Assembly (NCBI GenBank): GCA_902792515.1
Contig: CADAZX010000012.1
Span: forward strand, 6,165 to 70,164
DNA: 64,000 nucleotides
Direction of reading: 5' to 3'
DNA from: an uncultured Ruminococcus sp.
Lineage (GTDB): Bacteria; Bacillota; Clostridia; UBA1212
Below, in pieces: positions 3,011 through 45,646 of this stretch; the first letter of the stretch is position 1, and the number at the start of each line of letters is the position of its first letter. Position numbers and translations under genes: made by a program. The notes beneath the pieces were generated by a model. That model worked only from the letters and a program-made list of their open reading frames with translations. It was not told the DNA's origin and did not search any database.

Positions 3011-3108
3011 CGCCTCAAACCGGCCTCAAACCGGCGAAACCACGAAAACCGCGAAACCACGAAAGCCGCGAAACCACGAAAACCGCGAAACCACGAAAAC
3101 CGCGAGAA
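3011..3108. repeat. short tandem repeats (cctcaaaccgg x2; ~16-nt cgcgaaaccacgaaaac x5)
   Basis: Direct reading: ccgcctcaaaccggcctcaaaccgg, then gcgaaaccacgaaaaccgcgaaaccacgaaagccgcgaaaccacgaaaaccgcgaaaccacgaaaaccgcgag. Confidence 0.7.
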
Positions 3109-3182
3109 TCGGGTTCATAATCCCGCTAAAAAATCTCGTTCGAAAAACGTTCGAAAATCGCGTTCAAGAAGCGGATTTAAAG

Positions 3183-3714: not shown

Positions 3715-5721
3715 TCAGTAAAGCTTCGCGCCTGCGGGAATGTGCGGATCGAGCATGAGCAGGTTGAGCCGCTCCTCCTCGCCTTCCTTGTGGACAGCGG
3801 AGAGCAGCATGCCGCAGGATTCGATTCCCATCATCGCTCTTGGCGGAAGGTTCGTGATTGCGACGCACGTCTTTCCGACAAGCTGTTCGGGCTCGTAAAA
3901 CGCGTGAATTCCGCTCAGAATCGTGCGGTTCGTGCCCGTTCCGTCGTCAAGCGTGAACTTCAGAAGCTTTTTCGACTTCGGAACCGCCTCACACTCGAGG
4001 ACCTTCACGGCGCGGAAATCCGACTTCGAGAACGTCTCAAAATCGACCGTATCGCTGAAAAGCGGCTCGATCACAACGTTCGAAAAGTCGATCTTCTCTT
4101 CAACAGGAGCCTCGTTCCCGGCTTCCTGCGCCGCCTTGCAAGCCTCTTGAGATGGGCAGGTAAAGCAGGCGCACCCGGGTTCTCCGGCCTTTGCCTCTGC
4201 CTTTTCGGGCTTTTTATTGTCAAGCGACTTCATTGTCGGGAACAGCAAAACGTCGCGAATGGCCGGGCTGTCGGTGAGCAGCATTGTGAGTCTGTCGATG
4301 CCGTAGCCGATTCCACCCGTGGGCGGCATGCCGATCTCGAGCGCGTTGAGGAAGTCCTCGTCGGTATGGTTGGCCTCTTCGTCGCCTGCCGCAAAAGCCG
4401 CGTCCTGGGCCGCGAAACGTTCGCGCTGGTCGATCGGGTCGTTGAGCTCCGAGTATGCGTTGCACATCTCCCAGCCGTTGATGAACAGCTCGAAACGTTC
4501 AACGTAACCGGGCTTGTCGGGCTTGCGCTTCGTGAGCGGCGAGACCTCGACCGGGTGGTCCATAATGAAGGTCGGCTGGATGAGCTTGTCCTCGCAGAAC
4601 TCCTCGAAGAAAAGGTTGAGAATGTCGCCCTTTTGGTGACGCTCTTCAAACTCGACGCCCTTCTCCTTCGCGATCTTTTTCGCCTCTTCGGTGTCCTTGA
4701 CCTCGTCAAAGTCCACGCCGGCGTATTCCTTGACCGCGTCGATCATCGTAAGACGCCTGAAGGGCTTGCCGAGGTCGATAACTTTGTCGCCGTACTTGAT
4801 CTCGGTCGTGCCGCATACGGTCGTGGCGACGTGGCGGAACATGGACTCGGTGAGTTCCATCATTCCGTAGTAGTCGGTGTATGCCTGGTAGAGCTCCATG
4901 AGCGTGAACTCCGGGTTGTGCCTCGTGTCGACGCCTTCGTTGCGGAAAACGCGTCCGATCTCGTAAACGCGCTCCAATCCGCCGACGATGAGCCTCTTAA
5001 GGTAGAGTTCGAGCGAAATCCTCAGCTTCACGTCCTCGTCAAGCGCGTTGAAATGCGTCTCAAACGGCCTCGCAGCGGCACCGCCCGCGTTCGCGACAAG
5101 CATGGGCGTCTCGACCTCCATAAAGTCGCGGCCGTCCAGGAACCTTCTGATCTCGCGGATGATCTGCGAGCGCTTCACAAAAGTATCCCTGACCTCCGGG
5201 TTCATAATGAGGTCGATGTAACGCTGTCTGTAGCGCGTGTCGGTGTCCGTAATGCCGTGGAACTTTTCCGGAAGCGGATTCAACGACTTCGTGAGCAGCG
5301 TGAGTTCCTCCGCGTGAACGCTCGTCTCGCCTGTTTTCGTTTTGAAAACGAACCCCTTCACGCCGATGATGTCGCCGATGTCGAGCGTTTTGAAAAGCGC
5401 GTACGGCTCCTCACCGAGCGAATCGCGCGCCACGTAGAGCTGAATTCTGCCCGTTCTGTCGAGAATGTGCGCGAACGAAGCCTTGCCCATGATGCGTTTC
5501 GCCATAAGACGGCCCGCGAGCACGACCTGCTTCCCCTCAAGCTCCTCGAAATTCGCGAGAACCTCTGAAGAGAGGTGCGTCCTGTCGAACTTTGTGATCT
5601 TGTAAGGGTCGATTCCGCGCGCTCTTAGGTCGGCAAGCTTGCCGCGCCTCACAACCATCTGTTCCGAAAGCTGCCTTCCCTCGCCGCTTTCATCAGTTTC
5701 GGGTCTCATATTTTCTGCCAT
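3715..5721 (-). CDS. lysS: lysine--tRNA ligase (class II) with a C-terminal EMAP/Trbp111-like tRNA-binding domain
   Basis: N-terminal OB fold and class II core (GIDPY..; FMEVETP; ..[30 protein letters not shown]), followed by a ~170-aa extension that contains a Myf/tRNA_bind-type domain ([43 protein letters not shown]). RBS AGAGGTAA. Confidence 0.9.
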
Positions 5722-6449: not shown

Positions 6450-7958
6450 TTATTTCAGTTTGGCGTAGCCGTTATCCTTCAGAATAACGTCGTGCGCGCC
6501 GCCCTCGACGATGCTTGTCGAGCTGACCATCGTCAGCTTCGCGTTTTTGTGGAATTCCTCTATCGTGAGAACTCCGCAGTTGCACATTGTCGAGCGGATT
6601 TTTCCTAAAGTTAGGGCAATATTGTCGCTGAGTTTGCCCGCGTAGGGAACGTAGGAGTCAACGCCCTCCTCAAACGAGAGCTTTGACGCGCCGCCCATGT
6701 CGTAGCGCTGCCAGTTCCTTGCCCTGTTCGAGCCCTCGCCCCAGTACTCTTTGTAATACGTGCCGTTGATGTTGACCTTCGCCGACGGGCTCTCGTCGAA
6801 CCTCGCGAAATACCTGCCGAGCATTATGAAATCGGCGCCCATCGCCAGCGCGAGAGTCATGTGGTAGTCGAAAACGATTCCGCCGTCAGCGCAGAGCGGT
6901 ACGTAAACGCCCGTCTCCTCAAAGTATTTGTCGCGCTCCGCCGCAACGTCGATAACAGCCGAAGCCTGTCCGCGGCCGATACCCTTCTGCTCTCTCGTGA
7001 TGCAGATCGAACCGCCTCCGATACCGATCTTCACGAAGTCCGCGCCCGCGTCCGCAAGGAACCTGAACGACTCACCGTCGACAACGTTTCCGGCGCCAAC
7101 CTTCACGCTGTCACCGTATTTCGACCTGATCCACGCGATCGTCTCCTTCTGCCACTCGGAGTAACCCTCCGAAGAGTCGATGCACAGCACGTCCGCGCCC
7201 GCCTCAATAAGGGCCGGCACTCTCTTTTCGTAGTCGCGGCTGTTGATGCCCGCGCCGACCATGTACTGCTTGTGCTCGTCCAGAAGCTCGTCCGGGTTGT
7301 CCTTGTGCATATCGTAGTCCTTGCGGAAAACGAAATACTTCAGGTGGTCGTTCTCGTCGATGATCGGCAGCGAGTTGATCTTCTTCTCCCAGATAATGTC
7401 GTTCGCCTCTTTCAGCGACACGCCCTCTCTCGCGTAAACCAGCTTCGAAAACGGCGTCATAAACTCGGAAACCTTTTCGTCGCCGGTCATTCTGCTCGGC
7501 CTGTAGTCGCGGCTCGTAACGATGCCCAGAAGCTTTCCGCAGCAGGAACCGTCGTCGGTTATCGCTATCGTCGAAAATCCGTTTTCCTCTTTGAGCTTGA
7601 TCACGTCACTCAGCGTCGAATCCGGCCTCAGGTTTGACCTGCTGACAACGAATCCCGACTTGTAGCGCTTGACCTTGGAAACCATTTCCGCCTCGGACTC
7701 GATGCTCTGCGACCCGTAAATGAACGAAAGTCCGCCGCACTTCGCAAGCGCCACCGCCATGTTGTCGTCGGAAACGGCCTGCATTATCGCAGAAACCATC
7801 GGAATATTGATTGAAAGCGCCGGCTTCTCGCCCCTCCTGAATTTCACGATAGGCGTCTTCAGCGACACGTTCGACGGAACGTGCTGCTTGGAAGTATACC
7901 CCGGCAGGAGCAGGAACTCGTTAAATGTATGCGAGGGTTCCGGATAAATAAATGCCAT
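6450..7958 (-). CDS. guaB: IMP dehydrogenase (IMPDH/GMPR family with CBS pair)
   Basis: 502 aa with an inserted CBS region and the catalytic loop [13 protein letters not shown]-terminal flap [20 protein letters not shown] 8 nt upstream. Confidence 0.8.
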
Positions 7959-8097
7959 GTTTTAAATCCTCCGTTTATCAGTTAACCCGCTTGCGGCCCT
8001 TTTTCCCGGTCCGCCGCGCATGAAAAGTTCGCTTCAGATATAATAAAAAAAGCATCGGCGCGTGCTTTTGGCCACGCTACCCACACTTCATATTGCG

Positions 8098-8126
8098 ATT
8101 ATACTACGATTTTTTGCCGATTTCAA
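8098..8126 (-). promoter_or_regulatory. putative sigma-70 promoter of guaB
   Basis: Minus strand reads TTGAAA (8126..8121), 17-nt spacer, TATAAT (8103..8098), about 140 nt upstream of the guaB start. Confidence 0.4.
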
Positions 8127-8141
8127 GCGATTTCTTTCAAA

Positions 8142-8220
8142 GCCGCACTTTATGTTGCGTCTCTCACTTGACTGGGCAAAGCCCAGAATCGTTCGAACCG
8201 CAACATAAAGCTGCGGCGGC
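8142..8220. repeat. X-type palindromic element, copy X1 (arms tttatgttgcg / cgcaacataaa)
   Basis: Left arm gccgcactttatgttgcg, core ctcacttgac-tgggcaaagccca-gaatcgttcgaac, right arm cgcaacataaagctgcggcggc. Arms pair over 6+11 bp with a 1/2-nt bulge. Confidence 0.7.
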
Positions 8221-8280
8221 TCTTTCACAAGGTTGACATTGCTCGCGGAGTCGCCGCAGGCACCTTATTATTCCGTAAAA

Positions 8281-8348
8281 GCCTGTGTGTTTCGCACGAA
8301 GGCGACTCGTAGCCTTAGCTACGTCGGAGACTGAGTGGAAACACACAG
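8281..8348. repeat. H2-type element copy 1 (12-bp outer stem, conserved internal loops, inner hairpin)
   Basis: cctgtgtgtttc | GCACGAAGGCGAC | tcgtagc-ctt-agctacg | TCGGAGACTGAGTG | gaaacacacagg. Confidence 0.7.
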
Positions 8349-8407
8349 GGTTTATCGTTCGTGACGCCGATGCAAAGCTGCGGCGGCTCGAATTAAGGAA
8401 GCATTAA

Positions 8408-8483
8408 TGCACTTTATGTTGCGCCTCTCACTTGACTGGGCAAAGCCCAGAATCGTTCGAACCGCAACATAAAGCTGCGGCGG
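8408..8483. repeat. X-type palindromic element, copy X2 (atgttg type)
   Basis: Near-identical to X1: gcactttatgttgcg .. ctcacttgac tgggcaaagccca gaatcgttcgaac cgcaacataaagctgcggcggc. Confidence 0.7.
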
Positions 8484-8504
8484 CTCTAGATAAGGATGTG
8501 TTGA

Positions 8505-8558
8505 TGCACTTTGCATCGCGCCCCTCACTTGACGACGCACTTGATATTGCACCGCAGG
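8505..8558. repeat. partial X-type units (left arms of gcatcg and gatattg types, no adjacent partners)
   Basis: gcactttgcatcgcg-ccctcacttgac-gacgcacttgatattgca-ccgcaggc. The complementary gcatcg-type right arm lies at 8365..8386, on the other side of X2. Confidence 0.6.
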
Positions 8559-8578
8559 CTCCTTATTACTCCGTTAAA

Positions 8579-8632
8579 TCCTGTGTGTTTCGCAAGAAGG
8601 CGACTCGTAGCCTTAGCTACGTCGGAGACTGT
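8579..8632. repeat. H2-type element copy 2 (3' stem truncated)
   Basis: cctgtgtgtttcgcaagaaggcgactcgtagccttagctacgtcggagactgtg; the closing gaaacacacagg is missing. Confidence 0.55.
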
Positions 8633-8700
8633 GTAAAGAGCTGAAAATCGGCTTCTTGAAAACGCCTAGTTTCGAGCTATTTTTGAGAGTGCTTGTCCGA

Positions 8701-8778
8701 AGCCGCACTTTGCATCGCGCCCCTCACTTGACTGGGCAAAGCCCAGAATCGTTCGTGACGCCGATGCAAAGCTGCGGC
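8701..8778. repeat. X-type palindromic element, copy X3 (arms tttgcatcg / cgatgcaaa)
   Basis: gccgcactttgcatcgcg-cccctcacttgac-tgggcaaagccca-gaatcgttcgtgac-gccgatgcaaagctgcggcg. Confidence 0.7.
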
Positions 8779-8813
8779 GTCCTACACAAGGTTGCTAACG
8801 CAAGTTAGCCGAG

Positions 8814-8881
8814 TCGCGTATGTCTCGCGCGAAGGCGACTTTTAGCGTCAGCTAAACTGGAGACTGAGCGGAGACATACGC
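8814..8881. repeat. H2-type element copy 3 (different stems, same loops)
   Basis: cgcgtatgtctc | GCGCGAAGGCGAC | ttttagc-gtc-agctaaa | CTGGAGACTGAGCG | gagacatacgcg. Confidence 0.7.
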
Positions 8882-8993
8882 GGCTCTACTGCGAGAGGCA
8901 AGCCCTCTCAAAGCAATTCGCCAGCAATTGTCGAAGACACCTTATTCTCTTTTAGCTCCGGCGAATTGCGTAAAGAGCCGAAAATCGGCGTTT

Positions 8994-10322
8994 TTAATAC
9001 ATCAGGTTCACGTAGCTCGCATGATCCCCCATCGGGTCGATCGACCTGCCGCTCACGACCACGGTCGTGACCGTGTACTTCCCGGCCGCGAAATCCGTCG
9101 CGAACTTCGTGTACGTCGCGAGCTGCGACGGCGTGTTGATGCTGTGATACACAAAGCCCGACACAGTCGTCATGATCTCGTTGATCCTTCCGACGTTTTC
9201 GATCGTGATGACTTTCTTGGAGAAGTCCCTGATGAAGCGCAGCTGGTTGGCCTTTCTGTAGGGGTCGCCGGTCGAGCTGATTCTGCCGTTTTCGTTGTAG
9301 CGGTTTCTGGTGCGCAGGAACGTAACCGTCTCGGCGCCGTTTAAATGGTGGTAGCCCTTTGTGTACTTCAGCTCCGTTTTTCCGGTCGCCGAGTTCATGA
9401 CCCACCTGTCCTCGGAAAAATACACGTCCGCGCCGCCGAAAAGGTCGACAAACTTGGCCATGCCGTCCGGGTCGACGAAAATGTAGTCGTCAATGTGCAT
9501 GTTGGCGTCAGGCATCATCGCGCCGATGATGTGGCAGAGAAAATCGATTCCGGAGTTGCCGAACTTGCCGTCCTTGTACTTGATGAACTTGCCGATCGGA
9601 TAGCAGGCGTTCAGCTTGTATATACCCTTGCTCTTGTTGAGGCCGGTTCTCACAAGGTAGTCCTGCACCGCGCCGGTATACGGCACGTATGCGTCTCTCG
9701 CCAGCGAATAGCAGTCGACCGTTTTGGTGCGCTCGCAGATGCTGACGACTATCATCGTGTCGGTGAGGTCTGATTTGTTGTCGTAGCCTAAAAGTAGGAT
9801 ATTTTTGGCATCGGGCTGAAGTTTGACGTTGCTGCCGGCCGTTTTCGACACGCCCTCAACTATCGGGTCGGGAACGTAAGGAACCGTAGGTCCCGGGGCA
9901 CCTGTCGGCGGAGCCACGTCGGCCGGTTTAGGCGTCGGTGAAGGCGTCGGAGTCGGTGTCGGAGTAGCGTCGGGGTCTTCGGTTTCCGGAGTGGAAGAAG
10001 GATCCTCAGTAGAGGCTTCGGTTGGCGGAGGCGTTTCGGCCGGCTGCTCCGTTACCGTTGCCGGGTCCGGAGTCGGCGTAACCTCCTCGAGGTTTTCAAG
10101 GTCTGAGATGTCGATGACCTTGTCGCCCGGGTTTACCACAACGGTCTCGCCACCATGGTCGTTGTGCGGCTCGTTTTTCAGCGAGTTCCTCATAAACTTC
10201 ACGAGCGGAAGGAGCGTCGATACGTACACGACAACAAAGACAACAATAAAAATGTTGACGAAAATGCGGAGAGCCCTGCTGCCCGTCCCGTTATTCTTTT
10301 TCTTTTTAAAGTCTTTCTTCAT
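8994..10322 (-). CDS. LytR-CpsA-Psr (LCP) family cell-envelope phosphotransferase
   Basis: 442 aa: N-terminal TM helix, Pro/Thr-rich linker, then LCP domain motifs (NILLLGYDNKSDLTDTMIVVS, ..R.AYV..). Confidence 0.8.
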   Translation of the reverse strand: MKKDFKKKKNNGTGSRALRIFVNIFIVVFVVVYVSTLLPLVKFMRNSLKNEPHNDHGGETVVVNPGDKVIDISDLENLEEVTPTPDPATVTEQPAETPPPTEASTEDPSSTPETEDPDATPTPTPTPSPTPKPADVAPPTGAPGPTVPYVPDPIVEGVSKTAGSNVKLQPDAKNILLLGYDNKSDLTDTMIVVSICERTKTVDCYSLARDAYVPYTGAVQDYLVRTGLNKSKGIYKLNACYPIGKFIKYKDGKFGNSGIDFLCHIIGAMMPDANMHIDDYIFVDPDGMAKFVDLFGGADVYFSEDRWVMNSATGKTELKYTKGYHHLNGAETVTFLRTRNRYNENGRISSTGDPYRKANQLRFIRDFSKKVITIENVGRINEIMTTVSGFVYHSINTPSQLATYTKFATDFAAGKYTVTTVVVSGRSIDPMGDHASYVNLMY

Positions 10323-10499
10323 TATCTATTACACCTGCGGCGCGCCGCGTCCGCGCTTCCGTTTTCGCCCGGACAGTAATATTATACTACGTTTTATTGA
10401 AAAAATCTTGATTTTCCGGCGCTATTTTATTTCCCGGTTTTTGAGCGGTTTTCCGCGCCAAGGATTTTTGATACTCGTCAGAGTTTTTCGCAGGGCTGT

Positions 10500-11582
10500 T
10501 TACTCCGCGTCCGGAACGTACCCCGCCGCCTTGTAGTCGGTTTCGTTCATAAAAACGTACGAGACGCCGCCCTGGAAGTAGTTGTCAGTGATCCGTTCCT
10601 TGTCGTACCACGTGACGTCGATGTAAAGCGGTCCCTCGTCAGAGTAGACGCGGTTCCAGGCGTGGCGCTCGTCCGTTCCCGGCGCGAGTCCCGCGATAAA
10701 GTCGCAGCGGATGCCCGCCTTCCCGCAGAGCAGCTGAAACGCCTCCGCATACCCCCTGCAAACGGTCGTCCCGTTCACGAAAACGTTGTACGCGAGGTAC
10801 GGATCCATGACCGACGCCTGCGAGTCCTCGTAAACGCACGCCGCCGAAATCACCAGCGCGAAGTACCAGCACTTGTAATAGTTGCTCATTCCCGAAGGCA
10901 TTTTCGCGATAACCCTGTCGACAGTCTTGTTGAAAACGTCGACCGCGTTTTTGACAGCCGCCCTGTCCTCGGTCGCGTGCGGCAGCCACTCGTTGGGCAT
11001 GTAGTATTTGAGCTTGTAGATCTCCCCGAAAAGCCCCTCCGTATCAACGTCGGAATAAAGGTACAGGTCCTTCCTGCCCGCGTGAATCGCGTCCGTAGCG
11101 TCCACGACGACGGCGAAGAAGTTCGAGATTTCCGGGTAGTCCTTTTCGTTGATCGAAAAGTCGCCGAACGACTCGGCCGCTTCAACAATTTTGTCGTAAA
11201 TCTCACGTGACATCGCGTTTTTGATCGAATCGCGCGGGTTTTTAGCGGGTTCCGGACCGTCGCTTAAGACGTTGAGCTCGTCCGCGTCGACCGTATTGAG
11301 GAGCATGACCGCCTTTTTGATCGCGGGGTCGATGTGGCGCGCGGCTTTTTCTTCGTTCGCGTCGGCGAAAACCTCATTCTCATCGAAAATGACGGTAAAG
11401 CGGTCCGGCTCCGGCGTCGGTTCGGGCGTCGGAGCCTCAGTTTGAGCAGGTGCCGGCGTCGAATTATGGACTATGGTTATGATGCCGCACGAAGCGCACA
11501 CGCACAGAAACACCGCCGCGGCGACAACCGCCGCAACCGCCCTCAAAAACCTTCTGATTCTTTTAGCGTTCCCGTGTTCCAT
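10500..11582 (-). CDS. transglutaminase-like (Cys-His-Asp) lipoprotein
   Basis: Start at MEHGNAKR (ATG 11582) with a GGAAGGGG RBS. Signal/lipobox ..CVCASCG. Catalytic triad context CRGYAEAF, HAWN, DVTW. Confidence 0.7.
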   Translation of the reverse strand: MEHGNAKRIRRFLRAVAAVVAAAVFLCVCASCGIITIVHNSTPAPAQTEAPTPEPTPEPDRFTVIFDENEVFADANEEKAARHIDPAIKKAVMLLNTVDADELNVLSDGPEPAKNPRDSIKNAMSREIYDKIVEAAESFGDFSINEKDYPEISNFFAVVVDATDAIHAGRKDLYLYSDVDTEGLFGEIYKLKYYMPNEWLPHATEDRAAVKNAVDVFNKTVDRVIAKMPSGMSNYYKCWYFALVISAACVYEDSQASVMDPYLAYNVFVNGTTVCRGYAEAFQLLCGKAGIRCDFIAGLAPGTDERHAWNRVYSDEGPLYIDVTWYDKERITDNYFQGGVSYVFMNETDYKAAGYVPDAE

Positions 11583-11639
11583 TTCTGCCCCTTCCAATGA
11601 TTTCCGCATCTGAAACCGCGCGTGCGGCTCAAATTTTAC

Positions 11640-12185
11640 TCAAATTTTACCCAGCACGCGCCTCACCTCGAAGCTGCGCAGCGCCATCTCCTTCATGACC
11701 TGGTCGTCATGCTTAATGTATATCTCGTAAACGACGCCCTCGTCGACGGACCTGGCGTTAAAGCCGTAAGCCTCTTCATCGTCGTCGCCGAAGCAGTACA
11801 AAACCTTCGGGGCGTCTTCCTTCCTGACACCGTCGTTCTTTTTCGCCAGAACGTCGGCGGTTTTTACCTTCCTGAAATTCTCAAGGTCCTTTATGAGGAA
11901 ACTCATGACCTTCTTGCGGCGCGTCTGGTTCCTGATCTCGGAAATCGTAAACTCGCCCATAACTATCGAAAACTCGTACTCCAGATTGTTGTACTTCATA
12001 ATAAGCACCATCCCGTAAAACGCGATTGCGAAAACGAGAATGATCAGCAGAAAGCCGATCAGATGGTAAAAAATGTATATAACCGTCGCGACGGCAAGCG
12101 CCGCGATAGCGATGAGAATGCAGTAAATTACCGCGGTCTTGTTTTTTCTTGCCTTTACAAAGGTTTCGATTACTTCTTCTCTCAT
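11640..12185 (-). CDS. hypothetical membrane protein (two TM helices plus cytoplasmic domain)
   Basis: 181 aa with RBS GGAAG and two hydrophobic helices near the N-terminus. Confidence 0.55.
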   Translation of the reverse strand: MREEVIETFVKARKNKTAVIYCILIAIAALAVATVIYIFYHLIGFLLIILVFAIAFYGMVLIMKYNNLEYEFSIVMGEFTISEIRNQTRRKKVMSFLIKDLENFRKVKTADVLAKKNDGVRKEDAPKVLYCFGDDDEEAYGFNARSVDEGVVYEIYIKHDDQVMKEMALRSFEVRRVLGKI

Positions 12186-12312
12186 ATTATAACTTCCGAT
12201 AAAGGAAAGCGCACCTCCGAAGGGTTGTCGTATCGCCTCCGGGGGTGCGAAAAACCGCCACCATCATCTGGGGCATTCAATTATATTGGTTGCGCTTCGC
12301 ATTTCACCTGTC

Positions 12313-12449
12313 GCCGCACTTTGCATCGCGCCCCTCACTTGACGCCGCACTTTATGTTGCGCCCCTCACTTGACGACGCACTTGATATTGCACCGCTCAC
12401 TTGACCGCTTCGCGGAATCGTTCACGTCGCAATATCAAGCTGCGGCGGC
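12313..12449. repeat. 3x tandem 31-nt units (X-type left arm + CTCACTTGAC) plus one complementary right arm
   Basis: gccgcactttgcatcgcg-cccctcacttgac / gccgcactttatgttgcg-cccctcacttgac / gacgcacttgatattgca-ccgctcacttgac, then cgcttcgcggaatcgttcacgt, then cgcaatatcaagctgcggcggc, which pairs with unit 3. Confidence 0.7.
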
Positions 12450-12506
12450 TCTTCCACAAGGTAGATATTGCTCGCGGAATCGCCGCAGGCCCCGTGACGA
12501 TTCAAA

Positions 12507-12576
12507 CCAGGTGAGTCTCGCGCGAGGGCGACTTTTAGCGGCAGCTAAACCGGAGACCAAGCGGAGACTCACCTGG
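12507..12576. repeat. H2-type element copy 4 (overlaps the stop codon of the substrate-binding protein gene)
   Basis: ccaggtgagtctc | GCGCGAGGGCGAC | ttttagc-ggc-agctaaa | CCGGAGACCAAGCG | gagactcacctgg. Confidence 0.7.
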
Positions 12577-14020
12577 TAATCCAGCCGGCCTGGGCTTTTT
12601 CCTGCAGCGTCTGCAGGCTTTCCAACATCGTTCTCTCGCCGGACAGATAGCCGTCGATCGCGTAGGAGATGTCTATCTCGTTCGCGGACATTACCGGCAT
12701 GAAGCAGCCGAGGGAGCCCGCGAAGTCGGCGGATTCGGCGAAGTTCGAGAACACGGACGAGTTTTTGCCCGGCTTCGGGTATTCACGCCAGAACTTCTGG
12801 GTGTTGGCCGCCCTGTTAGCGGGAACGGCCTGGCCGTCGAGCGCGTAGCTCTTGGCGGCGTCGGTAACGGTCGCGTAGAGAGCGAGGTAAGCGCAGGCGC
12901 GGTAGAAGTCGTCGTTGTAGACGTCGCTCTTGCCGTGGTTCACGACAGCGAAGCCGTACACGTTGGCAGCGATCGCCTGGTAGTAAATACCGTTTTCCGC
13001 GTAGTTCTCGTCGTTCCAGCGCGGGAAGTGGATGTAGTCCCATTCCCACTTTGCGCCTTCGGCCTCAGGGTCTTCGGCGGCGAGGAGCGTCTCGGACCAT
13101 GTCGCGATGTCCTCGTGGTCAGCGATGATGAACGCGTATTTGGAGATGTCCTCGGGAGCGATATCCTTGGAGTCGATGCAGTCGACAAGTCCGCGCTCGG
13201 GGTTCACGATCTCGGCGAGGTCCTCAAGGCCGCTGACGACGTCGGGGTGCGTCAGGTTGAGTTCCTTGACCGTTTCCGAGTTGCCCACGTAGTCGTACAC
13301 GTCCTGGCCGTAGCTTCTCGCAAACGCGCCCCAGATCGCGTAGTCCTTGTAGTTCATCGCGATGGGAGTTTCGACGCCCTTCCCTTTCAGCGCCTCGGCG
13401 ATCTCAACCAGGTCGTCCCACGTCCAGTCGTCGTGCGGGAACGTGTAGCCCGCGGAGGAGATCAGCGAGTAGTTGAGCAGTACGAACTTGTGGTTGTACT
13501 CCATCGCCACCATGTACATGTCGCCGTTGTAGAAGCAAGCGTTGTACGCGGCGGGAAGAAGGTCGGCCGACGGATTGATTTTATTGTACGTGTCGAAGTT
13601 GAGCACTTCGCCGATGTACGGCCCGAGGTCGACAAGTTTGCCCTGCTGCGCGTAAAGTTCCATGCGCGGGGCGTCGAGGAGGATGACGTCGCCGGCGTTT
13701 TCGAGGTCGTCGCCGCTCATGAGGTCGTCGAGAACCTCAAAGTAAAGCGAAGTGGAGACCTTGTCGAGGTCGATGTCGATCTCAACGCCCGGGTAGTCGG
13801 AGTAGAAGACTGACTTGAACTTTTCGAGGTTCTGCGAGTTCTCGGAGTAGAGGTAGCCGGAGAGCTTGATCTCGGAAACGAGGTTCTCCGGAGTCGGTCT
13901 CGGAGTCGGCTTTATCTTATCGTCGTCGTCATCTTTTTTGGGCGTGCAGCCGGCCATTATCGCGAGCGCGAGAATGACGCAGATCGCAGCCGCAAGGAAA
14001 GCTTTTATTTTTCTGTTCAT
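12569..14020 (-). CDS. ABC transporter substrate-binding lipoprotein (extracellular solute-binding family 1, sugar type)
   Basis: Start at MNRKIKAFLAAAICVILALAIMAGC (ATG 14020..14018) with a GGAGGAGG RBS; the ORF-track N-terminal extension to 14299 is not supported. Lipobox, poly-Asp linker, SBP fold. Confidence 0.8.
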   Translation of the reverse strand: MNRKIKAFLAAAICVILALAIMAGCTPKKDDDDDKIKPTPRPTPENLVSEIKLSGYLYSENSQNLEKFKSVFYSDYPGVEIDIDLDKVSTSLYFEVLDDLMSGDDLENAGDVILLDAPRMELYAQQGKLVDLGPYIGEVLNFDTYNKINPSADLLPAAYNACFYNGDMYMVAMEYNHKFVLLNYSLISSAGYTFPHDDWTWDDLVEIAEALKGKGVETPIAMNYKDYAIWGAFARSYGQDVYDYVGNSETVKELNLTHPDVVSGLEDLAEIVNPERGLVDCIDSKDIAPEDISKYAFIIADHEDIATWSETLLAAEDPEAEGAKWEWDYIHFPRWNDENYAENGIYYQAIAANVYGFAVVNHGKSDVYNDDFYRACAYLALYATVTDAAKSYALDGQAVPANRAANTQKFWREYPKPGKNSSVFSNFAESADFAGSLGCFMPVMSANEIDISYAIDGYLSGERTMLESLQTLQEKAQAGWITR

Positions 14021-14034
14021 AAGTGCCTCCTCCT

Positions 14035-15048
14035 TTATTCGATAACGCCTATACGTTCGATACCGGCGGCAAGCTGTTTCTGACCGAGAATGTAGACGAT
14101 CATAACGGGGAGCATAACCATAAGGCAGCCCGCGAAGAGCATCGGCTCGGAGAGCGACTTTTCGAGCTCGGACATTGCGCCCTGGCTGGTCGCGTACTTG
14201 CTGTAGTACATCTGAATGTTCTGGAGTCTCGGCTGGAGCGTCTGGTGGCCGTCGATGTACATGTACGTTGGAGCCTCGTAGTTGTCGTTCCAGTGCCATA
14301 CGAACGAGAATATGAATACGATCGCGATAGCGGACTTTACGAGCGGGAGCATGATCTGTCCGAAGACCCTGATCGGGCCCGCACCGTCGATTCTGGCCGC
14401 GTCGTCCATAACGTCAGGAATTCTCTGGAAGAAGTACATGTAGATCAGCACGAAAAGCGCGCCGCGGAGGCCGAGTCCGAAAACGCACGGAAGCACGACC
14501 GGTCCCCAGGTGTTTACGAGACTGAGCGTCGCCCACAGACCGTAGGACGCGAGAATCATAACCTGCGGGGGGATGAGCAGTACAAGTACGACGAGGAAGA
14601 AAATAACGTTTCTGACCTTGAACTTGTAGCGGCCCAGCGAGTACCCTATCAGAGCGCACGCGGTCGTCTGGAACAGAGCCGAGAGGAGCGACGTTCCCAT
14701 CGAGTTGAAGAACGACTTGACGTAGTCGAGCGCCTCGAAAGCCTTCACGAAGTTGTCCCAGTTGACGGTGGTCGGGATGTACTGGACCGTCGGGTCCATG
14801 TAGTCCTGCGACGTCATGAGAGACGTGGAGAAAATGTAGATGAAAGGCAGAATGAAAAGGTACGCCATCTCGATGAGTACGAAGTACACAAAGATTCTGG
14901 AGATGATGAACGTGATCTTCTTCTTTGCCTTGTAGCCGAGATTCTCATATTTTTTGATGAATCCCTTGATGCCGCCGAGCTTCTTTTCGGTCTGCACGGC
15001 CGCGGCATCCGCTTGGGCAGCGGCGGTGTTAACAGCTTCCGGTGTCAC
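14035..15048 (-). CDS. carbohydrate ABC transporter permease (MalG-like)
   Basis: Six TM helices. Start chosen at the GTG (15048..15046), which sits 8 nt after GGAGG and overlaps the upstream stop as GTGA. The ORF track gives 15057, where the RBS abuts the start. Confidence 0.75.
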   Translation of the reverse strand: MTPEAVNTAAAQADAAAVQTEKKLGGIKGFIKKYENLGYKAKKKITFIISRIFVYFVLIEMAYLFILPFIYIFSTSLMTSQDYMDPTVQYIPTTVNWDNFVKAFEALDYVKSFFNSMGTSLLSALFQTTACALIGYSLGRYKFKVRNVIFFLVVLVLLIPPQVMILASYGLWATLSLVNTWGPVVLPCVFGLGLRGALFVLIYMYFFQRIPDVMDDAARIDGAGPIRVFGQIMLPLVKSAIAIVFIFSFVWHWNDNYEAPTYMYIDGHQTLQPRLQNIQMYYSKYATSQGAMSELEKSLSEPMLFAGCLMVMLPVMIVYILGQKQLAAGIERIGVIE

Positions 15049-15953
15049 TTCAGCCACCTCCTCGTAAGCAGGATGAAGATCATGATGACCGTGAGTGTTG
15101 CGAGCATGTAGAGCCAGCTGAGAGCCGACGCCTGTCCGTATTTCGTACCCTCCTGGGTCATACTGTTCATGATCGCCATAACGGGGTTGTCGGACGACAC
15201 GAACGAGTCAACGAGAGCGTATACGCAGTTCAGAATGACGAACGGCGAGATGTACGGCAGGGTAACGTGCCAGAACGTCTCCCACGCGGAGGCGCCGTCG
15301 ATTTCGACGACCTCGTAAAGCGTAGCGGGAACGCTCTGGAGAGCCGCGAGGAAGATCAGTATCTCAACGCTCGAGGCCCACATTATCGCGCCTATGTTGC
15401 TCATGATCGTCCCGAAGAACGAGTTGATCTGCTGAACACCCGTTGTGATCGAACTGAAAAGGCTCATGTTTCCGACGCCGTCCCTGAAAAGGTACGTCAT
15501 GATCGTTCCGGCGAGAATGACCGGGATGAAGAATATGACGCGGAAGACCGTTCTGCCCGGGAAGTCCTGCTTGAGCAGCACCGCCACGAAGAGCGAGAAA
15601 GCGACGATTACCGGCACCTTAATGAGCGAGTTTCCGAACGATTTGAAAACCGTTTCGCCGACGTTCGGGTCCTGGATAACCTTTACGTAGTTGTTGAAGC
15701 CGACGTACGTACTCGTGCCGTGGAATCCGTAAAGGTCGGTCAGAACCGTCTGGAAGAAACTGATTCTGACGGACAGTACGAGCGGAACCACGATGAATCC
15801 GAGGAATCCGATCAGCCACGGTACGGCAAATAGGAAACCTTCAAGCGATCTCTTCTTCTCAAACGACAGCAGAGTGTACTTTTGAGAATGAGCAAGCTTT
15901 TTCTTGTATTTTACCTGTTTTTTCAAAACAACCGGCCCCCTTTCGTTATCCAA
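15045..15953 (-). CDS. carbohydrate ABC transporter permease (MalF-like)
   Basis: 302 aa, six TM helices, EAA-type loop region. Confidence 0.8.
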   Translation of the reverse strand: MDNERGPVVLKKQVKYKKKLAHSQKYTLLSFEKKRSLEGFLFAVPWLIGFLGFIVVPLVLSVRISFFQTVLTDLYGFHGTSTYVGFNNYVKVIQDPNVGETVFKSFGNSLIKVPVIVAFSLFVAVLLKQDFPGRTVFRVIFFIPVILAGTIMTYLFRDGVGNMSLFSSITTGVQQINSFFGTIMSNIGAIMWASSVEILIFLAALQSVPATLYEVVEIDGASAWETFWHVTLPYISPFVILNCVYALVDSFVSSDNPVMAIMNSMTQEGTKYGQASALSWLYMLATLTVIMIFILLTRRWLK

Positions 15954-18693
15954 CCTTGACGGCCTCGGAAGAACCGTTATTGACTACCGCCACACCGAGC
16001 GCGGGAACGAGTCCCTCGGGAGCAGCGTAGTTTTCCTTGCTGTAGTTGACGTATATCTTTACGCCGTTGCTGTAGGTCGTGCAGTAGATGTCACCGTTTC
16101 TCGGGTCGTCCACGCACTTGTGGTCTACTATCGTGGCGTTCGCGACCGGCGCGAGGACCTTGTCGGCGAGAACGTAACCCTTCATTATGTCCGCGCTGAG
16201 GTCGTCGTACTGAGCCTTGAACAGCGAGTTGTAGTCGGTGTAGCGGAGCTCTTCCGTGGGTTCCTTGGTGACTTCGTACGTGAAGAACGCGCCGTACTCG
16301 ATCGATCTGAGCAGCGACTCGGTGTAGTTCGAGCTTCTGTTGATCGCGGTCGAATAGTAGTCAACCAGTCCGTGGTAAACGATCTGAACGAACGGAACGG
16401 ACTCGTCGATGATGAACAGCCTGGACGTCTCGGTCGGGATGTCGAGAATGTTGTCCGCGACTGAGGCGGCGTACTCGTAGCCGTAGTAGACCGAAACGTT
16501 GGCGAATTCCTTCTCGAACTCAACGATCCACTTTCTGTAGTACTCGATCGCCTGCTGGCGGAGAAGCGCGTTCTCCTTGTTGTAGTCCGTGAACAGGAGG
16601 TCGCCGAGCTGCTGGAGGTCGACGCTTGTGAAGCCGAGCTTCGAGATGTTCTTGACGTCCTTCTTCAGCATATGGGAGTCGTAGTAGAGCGGCCCCATAT
16701 AGTAGTTGTTGCTGGACCTGTAGAAAACGCCCGCGTTGCTGACCTGCTTGTAGTTTACGTAGAACGTGCCCGGGTTCTTTACGGTCGCCTGGCGGAGGCT
16801 GGCTCCCTTCGGCTTTCCGTAGAGGATCAGCATGTTCACGTCGGCGCTGACGTCCTTTTTGTTTTCGGCCGCATACGAAGTGAGGTCTTTAAGTCCGCTC
16901 TTGCCGCCCACGCTCGCACCGATGTTGTACTTGCGCATTATGTTGCCGTAGTAGCCGCCCTGCTGCCATCCGAGGAGCGAGTAGCGCATTCTCGGAGCCG
17001 CCTCGGCGGTCGACGCGACAATGTTCTTGGCCTGCGCGAACGTTGTCATGACCTTGTACTGCGTGAAGAGTCTGACCGAAGCCTGGTTGACGTCCGCGAA
17101 GAATATCTTGAGGTTGATGAGGTCGGGATCCTGACGCTTGTTTTCGTAGGAGTTGACCTTCGCGTCCTTGAGATAGTCGATCGTTTTGAAGTCGTTGTCC
17201 CACTTGTTAATCAGGAACTCTCGCGTGTTGTTCGCGACGTCGACGTACGTGTACTTCTTGTCCGAGTCGAACTCGTAGGAGTATCGCATCGTGAAGTCGC
17301 CGATTCCGGAGGGAACCTCGAGGAACGTGTAGGAGGCGCCGTTCTGGCTCATTTTCGCCTGGTAGAACTCTCTCCACTTGAACACGAACGTGACGTAGTA
17401 GAATTTCAGGTTCTTCATACCCGGCTGGCCGATGAGGACGGAAGCGTTCGCCTCGCTCTCGGTCGCGTAGCACGTGAGCATTTTGCTGCCCTTGACAACG
17501 CCGTACACCGGCATCGAGATCTTCTCGTTCGTCATGTTCGGGTAGTTGAACACGTCGAAAATGTCGTCGTAGCCGTAAATTCTCTTCTGGTACTCGTCGA
17601 ACTGCGAAATTCTCGGAACGTCGAAGTAAGTGAGTCCGCCGGAACCGTCGGGAGTTACGAAGTAGCCCTCGTCGCCCTGTCTCGCGGCGCTCATGAACGG
17701 CAGGCACGCGATGGACGCGACTCTCGGCATCTCGTCGGAATCTCTCGTGTAGTCCTTCTCTTCCTTGTCCTCCTTGACGTCCTTCTTGGGAACGTTGACG
17801 ATGAGGTCGCCGTTTTCGTCGAGCCAGAACTCAACCGCGAAGCTGAACTCGTAATTCACCTTGTAGGTGTCGGCCATGTTGTCGGTCTTGGTGACTTCGA
17901 TCGGAACCGTGTAGCGGACCTTGAAGCCGTCCGCGATCTTGTTGTACGCGAACCTGACCTTGTCTACCTGGTTGATACCGAAGTCCTTGCCGCCGTCGAG
18001 GTTGGAGGCTGTGTAGCCGAGCCTGACGAGAGAGGAAACGATATCGTGGTTGACCTTGTACTTCGGGTATTCGCTGTCGGCTGTTGCCGGGTCTGTCTCT
18101 TCGGGCTTCGGCGCCGGCCAGCTTCTGATCTCCTCTTTCTCACCCTTGGAGTTGGTGATCTCGAGGATGAGCAGCGAGTCTGAAGGCGAAAACTTGAGAA
18201 CGGTCTTGCCGCCGAGCTTGTTGGCCTTTTCGACGATGACTGTCATTCCCGCGTCGTTCGGAATCGTCTCTCCCGCCGCCTTGGGCTCGTTCTTGACAAT
18301 GTACTTGTCCATCCACTTGATATAGCCGACGTTACCGCCGAAAATCACCTTGTAGATGATGAAAATAGCCAGGAGCGCGACGACGATCGCCACAACGGTA
18401 ATGATGATCTTCTTTCTCTTTTTCTTCTTGCGCTGCTCTTCGAGGAACCTCTCGGCCTCCTCTTTGTCGATGTAAACGCCTTTGCGCGCCTCGTCGTCGT
18501 CCATTGAGGTCTTGAAAGCTGCCGTTTTTTTCGTCACGGTCTCCTGCGCCGCGTTTTCCGCGGTTTCGGCCGCGTTTTCGACGGTTCCGGCTGCATTTTC
18601 GACGGTCTCCGCGGTGTTCTCAACCGCGTTGTCAGCTGCCTCTACGTTTTGCAAGGCGTCATCTATATCGGTTTTTTTATTCTTTTTAAACAA
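15946..18693 (-). CDS. membrane-anchored DUF5696-like protein (putative glycoside-hydrolase-like; family name recalled from memory)
   Basis: 915 aa: cytoplasmic N-terminus with (T)VENAAE repeats, one TM helix (IIITVVAIVVALLAIFIIY) and a large extracellular domain. The C-terminal half is homologous to the CDS at 53586..55460. Confidence 0.65.
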   Translation of the reverse strand: MFKKNKKTDIDDALQNVEAADNAVENTAETVENAAGTVENAAETAENAAQETVTKKTAAFKTSMDDDEARKGVYIDKEEAERFLEEQRKKKKRKKIIITVVAIVVALLAIFIIYKVIFGGNVGYIKWMDKYIVKNEPKAAGETIPNDAGMTVIVEKANKLGGKTVLKFSPSDSLLILEITNSKGEKEEIRSWPAPKPEETDPATADSEYPKYKVNHDIVSSLVRLGYTASNLDGGKDFGINQVDKVRFAYNKIADGFKVRYTVPIEVTKTDNMADTYKVNYEFSFAVEFWLDENGDLIVNVPKKDVKEDKEEKDYTRDSDEMPRVASIACLPFMSAARQGDEGYFVTPDGSGGLTYFDVPRISQFDEYQKRIYGYDDIFDVFNYPNMTNEKISMPVYGVVKGSKMLTCYATESEANASVLIGQPGMKNLKFYYVTFVFKWREFYQAKMSQNGASYTFLEVPSGIGDFTMRYSYEFDSDKKYTYVDVANNTREFLINKWDNDFKTIDYLKDAKVNSYENKRQDPDLINLKIFFADVNQASVRLFTQYKVMTTFAQAKNIVASTAEAAPRMRYSLLGWQQGGYYGNIMRKYNIGASVGGKSGLKDLTSYAAENKKDVSADVNMLILYGKPKGASLRQATVKNPGTFYVNYKQVSNAGVFYRSSNNYYMGPLYYDSHMLKKDVKNISKLGFTSVDLQQLGDLLFTDYNKENALLRQQAIEYYRKWIVEFEKEFANVSVYYGYEYAASVADNILDIPTETSRLFIIDESVPFVQIVYHGLVDYYSTAINRSSNYTESLLRSIEYGAFFTYEVTKEPTEELRYTDYNSLFKAQYDDLSADIMKGYVLADKVLAPVANATIVDHKCVDDPRNGDIYCTTYSNGVKIYVNYSKENYAAPEGLVPALGVAVVNNGSSEAVKVG

Positions 18694-38051: not shown

Positions 38052-38152
38052 GTTTCCCGCCGTTTCCAATTAATTTTCCAATTGATTTTCTGTCATTATC
38101 CGGCATTTCCCGCTTTTTCCGGCTTTTCCCGCGTTTTTCCGGCATTTTCCAT
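38052..38152. repeat. low-complexity TTTTCCGGC / TTTCCCGC tract
   Basis: ttccaattaattttccaattgattttc ... ccggcatttcccgctttttccggcttttcccgcgtttttccggcattttcc. Confidence 0.5.
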
Positions 38153-43840: not shown

Positions 43841-45646
43841 TTACTTTTTCAAAATTTCGAGCGCTTTCGCGAGCACCGCGTCCTCCCCCTCGGGAATGAG
43901 CTCCGGGTCGGTGTTTTTGTACTCCGCCGCCTGCTCGACCGCTACGTCCGGATTGATCCCGACGCCGTCGATGCACTCGCCCGAGGGCGTGAAGTACCTG
44001 TGAGTCGACAGAACGATCCCGCTGCCGTCGCTCTCAAAAGTCAGGTTGATTTGCGCGAGCGCCTTGCCGTACGTATGCGAGCCTACCGTCGTTCCCGCCT
44101 TGAAATCCCTGAACGCTCCCGCCAGAAGCTCCGAAGCGCTCGCGGTTCCGCCGTCTACAAGCAACACCATGGGAACTCTAATGCAGTTCGAATCTGACGT
44201 AAACGTATTCACGACGGTTCCGTCGCGCCTTTTCGACACCGCGACCGTCCCCTCGGGAAGAATAATATCGCTGACCTCGACAGCCTCGTTTACGTAGCCG
44301 CCCGGATTTCCGCGCAGGTCGATCACAAGGCCGTCGGCGCCGTCACCGGTCACGTCGAGAAGCGCCTTTTTGAATTCCTCCGCCGTCCCGCCGATAAACT
44401 GGTTGACGCGGATGTACTTGATGCCGCCGCCCAGGTCGCGGGCGCTGACGGTCTTTTTGACGATTTTTTCGACCGTGCACCTGACGTCGCGCGTTACACC
44501 CGCGTTTTCGAGCGTCAGAACGATCTCCTCGCCTGTTTTGGAGAGCTCGCTCCTGATTTCGGAAATAGCCACGCCGTCCGTGGATTTTCCGTTGACAGCC
44601 CTGAGAACGTCGCCGGCCGTGATTCCCGCCTTTTCCGCGGGTGAGTTTTCCTCGACCTCGGTGACGTAAATGACGCCGTCAACTGTTTTCACCGTCATGC
44701 CTATGCCGCTGTAGGAGCCGTCTATAAAATCGGTGTAGTCCGACATCTTCCCGGGTCTGTAGTAGCTGCCGTAAGGGTCGTCGATTGATTCGGCCATGCC
44801 CCTGACCGCGCCCTCGACAAGCTCGTTCGGGTCAACGTCGGTGTAGTAGTTGTCTATTATAAAACGGTAAACAGACTGCAGTTTCGCAGTCTGTTCGTCG
44901 TCGAGGCCCTGTTCGGAAAAGTCGACCGAGTAGCCGGTCGCGGCCTTTTTATTTGAGACGCGCGAAGAAATTCTGCCTATGAAGTAGCCGCAGAGGCCTA
45001 CGAGGAACAGGAGGAGCGCGAGCATGATCGCCACGATCGCGATAACGGCGCGGCGTTCTCTCTTGTCGGCGGCTTCGTGCCGGTCTCCGGCGGATTGTTC
45101 TTCGTTTTCATCTCCGGAAGCGTCTAAGGCGCCGTTCTCCGTGTCTTTCTTCGTGCCGTTCTCCGCGGAATTTCCGGCAGCGTCCGCGGTTTTTCCGGCA
45201 GCGCCCGCGGTTTTTCCGTTTTCGGCGGCGTCAGAAGCGTCACCGTTCAAAGAGTTTCCGTTTGCCGCAGCCTCCGTCGCGGATCCCGCACTCAGTCCTG
45301 CCGCCCCGCTTTGATTATGTTCCGTTTCCGTGAACCCTCTCAGCCGGCCCGTTACCGACGAAGGGTCGAAAACCGTATCCGATCCGGGCTGAACGTCCTC
45401 AAGCCTTTGCTCCGTCACCGCGGAATTGTTTTCCGGCCTGTTTTCCGTCCCGCCTTCAGACCTTCCCGCGTCGCTTCCGGAATCGGGAACGTTCCCGAAC
45501 TGCCCGTAAAGCCTCGTTTTAGGTCTCGAAGCGCTTCCCGCGCCGCTCAGAGCCTCCGCGAAGAACGAATCCGCCCACTCGTCGTGTTCTCTGTTATCCG
45601 GTTGGAAATTATCAAAATCGCCCATATTTTCAACCCTTGCCGTCAA
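43841..45646 (-). CDS. ctpA: S41 C-terminal processing peptidase with ~200-aa disordered N-terminal tail
   Basis: TM anchor, PDZ domain, S41 catalytic region (..VLLVDGGTASASELLAGAF..). Start overlaps the ftsX stop as ATGA. Confidence 0.8.
   Translation of the reverse strand: MTARVENMGDFDNFQPDNREHDEWADSFFAEALSGAGSASRPKTRLYGQFGNVPDSGSDAGRSEGGTENRPENNSAVTEQRLEDVQPGSDTVFDPSSVTGRLRGFTETEHNQSGAAGLSAGSATEAAANGNSLNGDASDAAENGKTAGAAGKTADAAGNSAENGTKKDTENGALDASGDENEEQSAGDRHEAADKRERRAVIAIVAIMLALLLFLVGLCGYFIGRISSRVSNKKAATGYSVDFSEQGLDDEQTAKLQSVYRFIIDNYYTDVDPNELVEGAVRGMAESIDDPYGSYYRPGKMSDYTDFIDGSYSGIGMTVKTVDGVIYVTEVEENSPAEKAGITAGDVLRAVNGKSTDGVAISEIRSELSKTGEEIVLTLENAGVTRDVRCTVEKIVKKTVSARDLGGGIKYIRVNQFIGGTAEEFKKALLDVTGDGADGLVIDLRGNPGGYVNEAVEVSDIILPEGTVAVSKRRDGTVVNTFTSDSNCIRVPMVLLVDGGTASASELLAGAFRDFKAGTTVGSHTYGKALAQINLTFESDGSGIVLSTHRYFTPSGECIDGVGINPDVAVEQAAEYKNTDPELIPEGEDAVLAKALEILKK

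Follow-up and report, generated by a model that had tools for sequence, protein, structure and literature searches.

A tandem array of 31-nt half-hairpins in an uncultured Ruminococcus sp. and the modular repeat family to which it probably belongs

How does a short array come about in which constant and variable segments alternate with a fixed period, and does it mean anything to its host? This question is raised by contig CADAZX010000012.1 of an uncultured Ruminococcus sp. (assembly GCA_902792515.1), of which a stretch of 64,000 nucleotides, hereafter the window, was analysed. Three 31-nt units follow one another head to tail at 12313-12405, in the spacer between the gene of an ATP-binding cassette (ABC) transporter substrate-binding lipoprotein and a DUF6106 gene. 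A first-pass annotation of the window had likened this layout to a repeat-spacer array, while judging a CRISPR array unlikely, and had proposed amplification of one element end by replication slippage, or a modular RNA, instead. We found that the units are halves of a larger hairpin. The array is probably part of a lineage-specific set of modular, hairpin-forming interspersed repeats, of the BOX, BIME, REP, REPIN or MITE kind, and represents a stack of orphan half-hairpins. The repeat family, referred to here by its modules as H1/Y/H2, is undescribed and restricted to one lineage, and the array itself is a by-product.

The units and the hairpins they come from

The tandem layout is apparent from reading the sequence and was also detected by Tandem Repeats Finder, which reported a period of 31, 3.3 copies, 84% matches and a score of 134 for 12304-12405. 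The program extended the array into a degenerate partial unit at 12304-12312 (TCACCTGTC), seven of whose nine bases are as in TCACTTGAC. The left flank ...CATTTCACCTGTCGCCGCA, which includes these nine positions, is present in locus L028 and, with changes, in locus L005, both devoid of 31-nt units (loci outside the window are designated by L and three digits). The units obey the formula G(C/A)CGCA + CTT + variable heptamer + GC(G/A)C + C(C/G)C + CTCACTTGAC. Unit 1 (12313-12343; GCCGCACTTTGCATCGCGCCCCTCACTTGAC) has the stem variant TTTGCATCG, unit 2 (12344-12374) the stem variant TTTATGTTG, and unit 3 (12375-12405) reads GACGCACTTGATATTGCACCGCTCACTTGAC; their heptamers are TGCATCG, TATGTTG and GATATTG, respectively, and we call the variants GCATCG, ATGTTG and GATATTG. 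These features, like all the modules of the window described below, are on the + strand.

The three head-to-tail units are real. An identical array is found in two separately deposited assemblies, on a 69.9-kb scaffold of ERZ28612982 (L001) and on a k141 contig of ERZ27280566 (L002). At 93 nt, the array is shorter than the k-mer length of the k141 contig that carries it, and the three units are mutually distinct in sequence, which makes an expansion created by the assembler unlikely. A coding explanation was discarded, as the 31-nt period is no multiple of 3 and the small open reading frames (ORFs) across the modules are unconserved.

Each unit is the left half (L) of a hairpin of approximately 75 nt, H1, organised as L - apical hairpin - R, where R denotes the right arm. 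The outer stem of H1 is conserved (GCCGCA / TGCGGC), and its inner stem is variable, occurring in a few discrete, fully compensated variants. H1 further has a conserved internal loop with CTCACTTGAC on the 5' side and AATCGTTC on the 3' side. R is made up of AATCGTTC, 3-5 nt, the complement of the variable stem and AAGCTGCGGC. The apical position is occupied either by a small, exchangeable hairpin, TGGGCAAAGCCCAG or CCGCTTCGCGG, or by an entire inner block (H1 - Y - H2). In the window, units 1 and 2 are orphan 5' halves. Unit 3 is the left half of a complete H1 of the GATATTG variant (12375-12449), which the H1 covariance model R1 scores at 74.5 bits (E=6.6e-15) over 12375-12447. As previously annotated, this unit alone has its right arm. 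R spans 12416-12449, with AATCGTTC and ...CAATATCAAGCTGCGGCGGC, and the complementary sequence ...GTCGCAATATCAAGCTGCGGCGGC lies within it. The 22-nt linker described between the two arms is not neutral sequence: it comprises a 4-bp apical hairpin, CCGCTTCGCGG, at 12405-12415, as well as the conserved AATCGTTC. The linker module Y (12450-12490; repeat family D11) follows, then the fourth H2 copy (12506-12577), scored by model R2 at 96.4 bits (E=7e-28) over 12504-12579. Y ends in GCCGCAGGC, which the comparison of strains identifies as one of the short direct repeats where blocks have been lost or gained. The H2 copy overlaps the stop codon of the substrate-binding protein gene (TGA, 12569-12571), in agreement with the first annotation.

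That the units are left arms of an element present elsewhere in the window was confirmed by a second cluster of the family at 8142-8978, between the IMP dehydrogenase and LytR-CpsA-Psr genes. Covariance model and pattern reading place complete H1 hairpins at 8142-8218, 8406-8482 and 8702-8779. Two orphans, a right arm (8354-8385) and an L unit (8503-8533) with a truncated L of the GATATTG type behind it (to 8552), also belong to the cluster, together with H2 copies at 8278-8353 and 8811-8886, a truncated H2 copy at 8576-8648, and W modules. In the whole window, the H1 model matches solely at 8142, 8406, 8702 and 12375, and the H2 model solely at 8278, 8811 and 12504, plus the truncated copy at 8576. 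The window has seven exact copies of the 10-mer CTCACTTGAC, none of them on the - strand or outside the two intergenic clusters; chance would predict about 0.1 exact matches of a random 10-mer in 128 kb. Each of the stem variants GCATCG, ATGTTG and GATATTG also exists in other places in a complete hairpin, paired with the arm complementary to it. The orthologous spacer of the second cluster in the metagenome contig L015 shares the left flank and contains modules in a different order.

The arms of both hairpins are clearly kept complementary among copies. For H1, we aligned 24 complete copies, 17 of them distinct, and counted pairs for the hairpin as read off the sequence: 96.7% of the cells are standard pairs. 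Values as high as these were obtained in 0 of 500 shuffles, and when the partner is slid by 1-3 columns, 27-44% remain paired. For H2 (20 copies, 17 distinct), 99.8% of the cells are paired. Nine of the 24 pairs of H1 and 14 of the 25 pairs of H2 are altered on both sides, counts that overstate the number of independent events since the copies fall into a few discrete subfamilies. The two-sided changes of H2 include its hypervariable outer stem and pairs inside an apparent internal loop. Chimeric hairpins with mismatched arms are present in L015 and L018, where an L with TTTACATTG is combined with an R of the GCATCG variant, as is expected from the shuffling of modules. Modules truncated at shared junction motifs were also observed, in line with rearrangement driven by these motifs.

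The family has a narrow distribution. We searched a single genome of each of 185,579 species with a pattern describing the complete H1, and the sole true matches came from the metagenome-assembled genome (MAG) Mageeibacillus sp. UBA1212 (Oscillospiraceae), at 10 loci on 9 contigs. UBA1212 has 12 complete H1 copies on these nine contigs (11 exact pattern matches and one with AATCGCTC), all of them intergenic. A Verrucomicrobia match, L013, was dismissed as a chance match, there being no hairpin around the pattern. The H1 pattern has no match in viral contigs, and neither covariance model matches in the loci of more distant relatives. Searching the whole window against Rfam at the gathering threshold returned two tRNAs only, and at E<=10 the region 7950-12700 gave four weak sub-threshold matches, none relevant; the only one within the array region is RT-3, with 13.5 bits against a gathering score of 40.5. 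The copies of UBA1212 and the two clusters of the window are dispersed, non-coding and extragenic, their stem-loop pairing is maintained, and their module content varies at orthologous loci. We describe here a strongly covarying modular family of uncultured Oscillospiraceae that is absent from Rfam and from all other species representatives scanned.

Strain variation and nested hairpins

The first annotation had suggested comparing the number of units at the same locus in related strains. We took the spacer between the transporter gene and the DUF6106 gene from members of the 90% cluster of the substrate-binding protein, and found that it holds 0, 2 or 3 units. The exact 483-residue protein of the window is on record on three contigs, two of which (L001 and L002) reach into the spacer; like the window, they have three units, in the arrangement L(GCATCG) - L(ATGTTG) - H1(GATATTG) - Y - H2. 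In L031, whose protein differs by 3 residues, there are two units, and the order is L(GCATCG) - H1(ATGTTG) - Y - H2 (left half) - W module. L032, from the same 90% cluster (P0035), also has two, in the arrangement L(GCATCG) - [H1(ATGTTG) - Y - H2] - GTTT - R(GCATCG) - ... - H2. This is the complete nested form, in which the right arm of unit 1 lies approximately 240 nt downstream, after H2. In both L031 and L032, the apical hairpin and right arm that come after unit 2 are its own. No unit and no H2 are present in L028 and L029 (2 residues different), in which the left flank runs up to GCCGCA and is followed by GGCACC... and other modules. UBA1212 (L005; same 90% cluster, P0036) has no unit either, its flank being followed by GCCGCAGGC, 16 nt and H2, and L024-26 (90% identity) have other modules only. 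At 74-77% protein identity (L027, L034 and L036), no module of the H1/Y/H2 family is found. The sets of H2, W and Z modules also differ among relatives. Owing to the family, intergenic regions are hypervariable between strains with flanking proteins that are 97-100% identical, which is of use for strain typing. As for L034/L035, whose transporter protein is 74% identical, the equivalent spacer (3960-4100) contains a different short repeated motif, ..CACCGTCAAACTC.. / ..CACCGTCGAACCC.., and the spacer may therefore attract repeats in other lineages too.

The differences between strains have defined boundaries. According to the blastn segments, the window lacks a 196-nt block of L032 that contains R(GCATCG) and lies between two 9-nt GCCGCAGGC direct repeats. 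Where L031 has TGGGCAAAGCCCAGAATCGTTCGTGACGCCAACATAA (37 nt), the window has GACGCACTTGATATTGCACCGCTCACTTGACCGCTTCGCGGAATCGTTCACGTCGCAATATC (62 nt); both cassettes are flanked by identical CTCACTTGAC and AAGCTGCGGCGGCTCTTCC..., and donor copies with exactly the 62-nt cassette behind another L are present at at least eight other loci. Breakpoints between strains fall at GCCGCA(GGC), CTCACTTGAC and AAGCTGCGGC. The block 12313-12490, absent in UBA1212, has GCCGCA at both ends; as GCCGCA is itself part of the modules, this is equally compatible with a deletion by short homology.

Junctions of two left halves (L-L) were identified at nine further metagenomic loci, with various outer variants. In the complete loci L020 and L023, as in L032, the matching R of the outer L is located after H2. 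In the nested form, L(x) - [H1(y) - Y - H2] - GTTT - R(x), the two outer arms are of matching variants; in L023, they pair in a variant-specific manner (TTTGCATTG / CAATGCAAA). Minimum-free-energy folds of the nested units, of approximately 270 nt, close the outer L and outer R around a multi-helix junction in five cases out of six, the exception being the + strand of L020, where the two are not paired with each other. At L017 3804-3967, the apical position of an H1 holds GCCGCAGGC..-H2 alone, and the H1 model spans the whole at 47.9 bits. Together with the nested layouts, L017 shows that an L-L junction is the 5' border of one hairpin lodged at the apical position of a second. L017 also has, at 4232-4293, two identical 31-nt L units in perfect tandem, and a similar pair is found in L022.

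Origin of the array and competing explanations

With the module family, the covariation of its arms, the nested form and the strain differences in hand, a route to the array can be proposed. An inner block in the apical position of a hairpin brings two left halves head to tail, the outer R being some 240 nt away after H2. The modules share the junction motifs GCCGCA(GG), CTCACTTGAC, AATCGTTC and AAGCTGCGGC, between which blocks are probably deleted, swapped and duplicated. Unit 1 is probably the outer left arm of a nested element, whose R was lost with the 196-nt block bounded by GCCGCAGGC repeats. Unit 2 is probably the inner hairpin's left arm, the loop and R of this hairpin having been exchanged, between CTCACTTGAC and AAGCTGCGGC, for a hairpin of the GATATTG type, and unit 3 is the left arm of that incoming hairpin. 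Alternatively, a third level of nesting could have been followed by a deletion between two Y modules. We infer the order of these rearrangements and, as their mechanism, short-homology recombination or a switch of template at hairpins in the course of replication. Units 1 and 2 most probably have no function of their own: as module content differs between strains with nearly identical flanking genes, the orphan units appear dispensable.

The clusters show a bias in orientation. Around 22 clusters, for which a codon-usage filter retained real genes, 26 of the 34 flanking genes are on the strand opposite to the + orientation of the element. Twelve times out of 15, a convergent gene has the H2/W end on its 3' side, at no more than 40 nt from the stop codon in 11 cases and at 82 nt in one. 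With this orientation and 3' placement, the reverse complement of the element would in most cases form a 3' region transcribed together with the gene. Of the two strands, it is always the - strand whose fold is the more stable; in the window, the values are -131 vs -108 kcal/mol, with z = -4.0 vs -2.8. An assignment of the strand from G.U versus A.C mismatches was abandoned, as the modules point different ways: on the + strand, H2 has four G.U and no A.C pairs and H1 has five A.C vs three G.T; on the - strand, two G.U pairs are conserved in the Y hairpin. It is conceivable that the hairpins act as RNA in 3' untranslated regions (3'-UTRs), or as single-stranded DNA for a mobilising enzyme. The orientation bias, of about 80%, could equally follow the direction of replication, as for elements mobilised as single-stranded DNA.

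Several points weigh against the origin of the array by nesting and rearrangement of modules. The present-day forms fit deletion or insertion, and exchange or nested insertion plus deletion, alike. The pattern of the metagenome scan demanded an L directly before another L, so the frequency of L-L junctions relative to plain hairpins cannot be derived from it. We found no target-site duplications, no mobilising enzyme in the window and no clean pair of filled and empty sites, which leaves mobility hypothetical; no consistent duplication flanks the H1 copies, though inverted arms are present. The strong covariation and the 26/34 orientation bias suggest selection on the hairpins, and the orphan units could conceivably join in a selected role, for instance if the conserved outer stem paired in an alternative manner. 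Lastly, there is no difference in units 1 and 2 between the window, L031 and L032, strains that are too close to show constraint.

Among other explanations, the family might be an element that nests in itself through a mechanism peculiar to it. The loop motifs of H1 (CTCACTTGAC / AATCGTTC) and H2 would then be putative recognition or cleavage sites of a structure-specific enzyme or RNA-binding protein, blocks would be inserted into the junctions of other copies with L-L stacks as successive events, and the ~270-nt unit would be a real multi-helix junction, as RNA or single-stranded DNA, with a role in the 3' regions of operons. We regard this as rather unlikely; the family might still lead to a new enzyme that recognises hairpins or to an RNA function in 3'-UTRs, should there be one. 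A narrower proposal is that of a mobile element for which a single-strand DNA transposase (HUH/RAYT-like or other) or another recombinase recognises H1, cuts after CTCACTTGAC and inserts H1-Y-H2, L-L junctions being transposition scars. The junction indeed always falls directly after CTCACTTGAC, a conserved internal loop with variable stems would suit a structure-specific enzyme, and the GATATTG-type hairpin is preceded by another L, with differing outer variants, in 10 of the 10 occurrences seen, a proportion biased by the L-L search pattern. However, neither a transposase gene nor target-site duplications were identified in the window or in the loci examined, the apical hairpin is replaced rather than split in the nested form, leaving no clean insertion footprint, and the breakpoints between strains at several shared motifs are better suited to homology-driven exchange. 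We consider such scars unlikely. The absence of suitable enzymes is based on a Pfam scan of 41 of the 42 called ORFs of the window plus a second permease gene (14035-15057), in which no Cas, transposase or reverse-transcriptase domains were found. The products are transporters, glycosidases and housekeeping proteins; lysS, greA and guaB were assigned from their translations instead of the scan. It is also improbable that the modules form a functional transcribed RNA, such as a 3'-UTR stabiliser, a terminator-like structure or a protein-binding RNA, with the half-units as decoys or alternative pairing partners. The covariation in H1 and H2, the orientation and 3' placement relative to flanking genes and the more stable folding of the - strand would all agree with it, and BOX, ERIC and REP are known to act on co-transcribed mRNAs (PMC3049150). 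The variation of unit number and module sets between close strains with almost identical flanking genes argues against it, as do the conflicting strand signals from H1, H2 and Y, the lack of an Rfam family match and the possible link of the orientation bias to replication.

Simple amplification of one element end by replication slippage, as initially proposed, would account for the perfect L-L duplicate in L017, and the similar pair in L022 also speaks for it. For the array of the window, it is very unlikely and mostly refuted: the units are three stem variants, each of which exists elsewhere as a complete hairpin, unit 1 has its cognate right arm in L032, and the step from two units in L031 to three corresponds to the exchange of a 37-nt for a 62-nt cassette, not to the gain of a neighbouring copy. 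Nor is a mis-join among dispersed repeats credible as the source of the array, its probability being marginal. The contigs of relatives often break in these clusters (L002, L011, L021 and L022 end there), which should serve as a warning for short-read MAG assembly, but two differently built assemblies agree on an array that is shorter than a 141-mer and composed of distinct units, and the junction between units 1 and 2 recurs in related strains. The likeness to a CRISPR array, finally, is limited to a superficial layout, the regular alternation of constant and variable parts at a fixed 31-nt period. CRISPR arrays have repeats of ~23-47 nt and unique spacers of similar length, whereas here the total period is 31 nt, with 7-9 variable bases drawn from a small set of variants that recur at numerous loci and each have a complementary partner arm. 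The hairpin of which the units are halves is dispersed in the genome, and the 64-kb window has no cas gene. The first annotation was right to doubt this interpretation, which has virtually no chance of being correct. With the CRISPR-like false lead removed, the array can be explained by the nesting of hairpins, the loss of a block between repeats of 9 nt and the exchange of a cassette.

Relation to known repeats and surrounding features

The BOX elements of Streptococcus pneumoniae and S. suis are modular (boxA - boxB(n) - boxC), with a strain-variable number of boxB modules and predicted stem-loops (PMC3049150). Both they and the H1/Y/H2 family are composite intergenic repeats with an internal module in tandem arrays of strain-variable copy number; both are predicted to form stem-loops when transcribed, cluster with other repeats and need no coding capacity of their own (PMC3049150). 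Unlike the self-contained boxB, however, what is iterated here is one half of a hairpin, and through nesting its partner arm may be located far downstream, and the units of a single array belong to different stem variants. The host lineage is one of Oscillospiraceae MAGs, and a comparison by eye revealed no sequence relationship; hence, we do not class the family as BOX.

REP, BIME and REPIN sequences form discrete groups and occur as hairpin doublets, as singlets interpreted as defunct remnants, as clusters built by insertion into or beside elements already present, and as tandem REP arrays (PMC3116915). Like them, the H1/Y/H2 modules are short imperfect palindromes dispersed in extragenic regions, in few discrete groups per genome, and they are found as singlets, hairpin doublets and higher-order clusters, some of which may likewise arise by insertion into or next to existing elements. 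The differences lie in the larger hairpins (~75 nt) with a conserved 10-13-nt internal loop, the Gram-positive instead of proteobacterial host, the second hairpin type H2 and linker modules, the nesting of hairpin within hairpin with matched outer arms, and the lack of any RAYT or other transposase among the window proteins scanned. As for MITE-like elements such as ERIC/IRU, Correia and RUP, they too are non-coding and present in many copies, have inverted-repeat ends that form hairpins, and vary between strains in presence and size. In contrast, we saw no target-site duplication, and the modules, rather than travelling together as a single block, undergo shuffling at several internal motifs. 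To our knowledge, there is no insertion sequence related to the H1/Y/H2 family. MITE-like elements can be co-transcribed with neighbouring genes and have orientation-dependent effects (PMC3049150).

The substrate-binding lipoprotein gene that borders the array (12569-14020, - strand; Pfam SBP_bac_1 and SBP_bac_8) encodes a protein of 483 residues beginning with MNRKIKAF...; its start is at MNRK and not at that of the longest ORF (576 residues). The outer stem of the fourth H2 copy is formed by ACCAGGTGA / TCACCTGGT, and its right arm covers the last codons of the gene and the TGA. As homologues keep the C-terminus ...AGWITR even at 72% identity, this right arm is native gene sequence. The stop codon is TGA in the window and TAG in strains with no H2 at the site. 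The usual junction between H2 and R, GGTTTATCG, resembles the gene end, GGTTATCC, which suggests that the H2 copy was joined to the gene end via short homology. With such joining sufficient as an explanation, we set aside the idea that the left outer arm of H2 was templated from the gene end; a very similar stem (CCGGTGG / CCACCGG) is present at L023 11150-11225. Stop-codon abutment of a similar kind occurs in L016.

On the other side, between the repeat block and the DUF6106 gene and just upstream of the latter, a GC-rich hairpin, GCACCCCCGGAGG...CCTTCGGAGGTGC, is followed by a T-rich run (12209-12249, - strand). It is common to the window, L024, L028, L031, L032 and L005, regardless of their modules, and is probably the native terminator or leader of the spacer. 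A scan of 12100-12700 for promoters and terminators gave consensus-level matches only, among them a promoter-like site at the edge of the array (12307->12280, - strand) that is unconserved in relatives. Classical bidirectional terminator hairpins, made up of an A-run, a GC stem and a T-run, are located within or at the edge of clusters in related contigs, at L017 4170-4230 and after the last module of L015 and L018; native terminators are thus places where clusters accumulate.

A second, unrelated kind of short tandem repeat, with 9-21-nt units resembling CGCGGTTTT / AAACCGCG, is found at 559-646, 3012-3165, 18548-18611, 38063-38150, 45162-45218 and 51551-51599. Examples are AAACCGCGAAACCACGA, repeated 4.5 times at 3028-3105, and TCCGGCATTTCCCGCGTTTT, repeated 2.5 times at 38099-38147. 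The sites at 3012-3165 and 38063-38150 are between called ORFs, and that at 18548-18611 is inside a DUF5696 gene (15946-18693). The two Rfam gathering-score matches of the window are the adjacent genes for tRNA-Glu(ttc) and tRNA-Met(cat), at 279-434 on the - strand.

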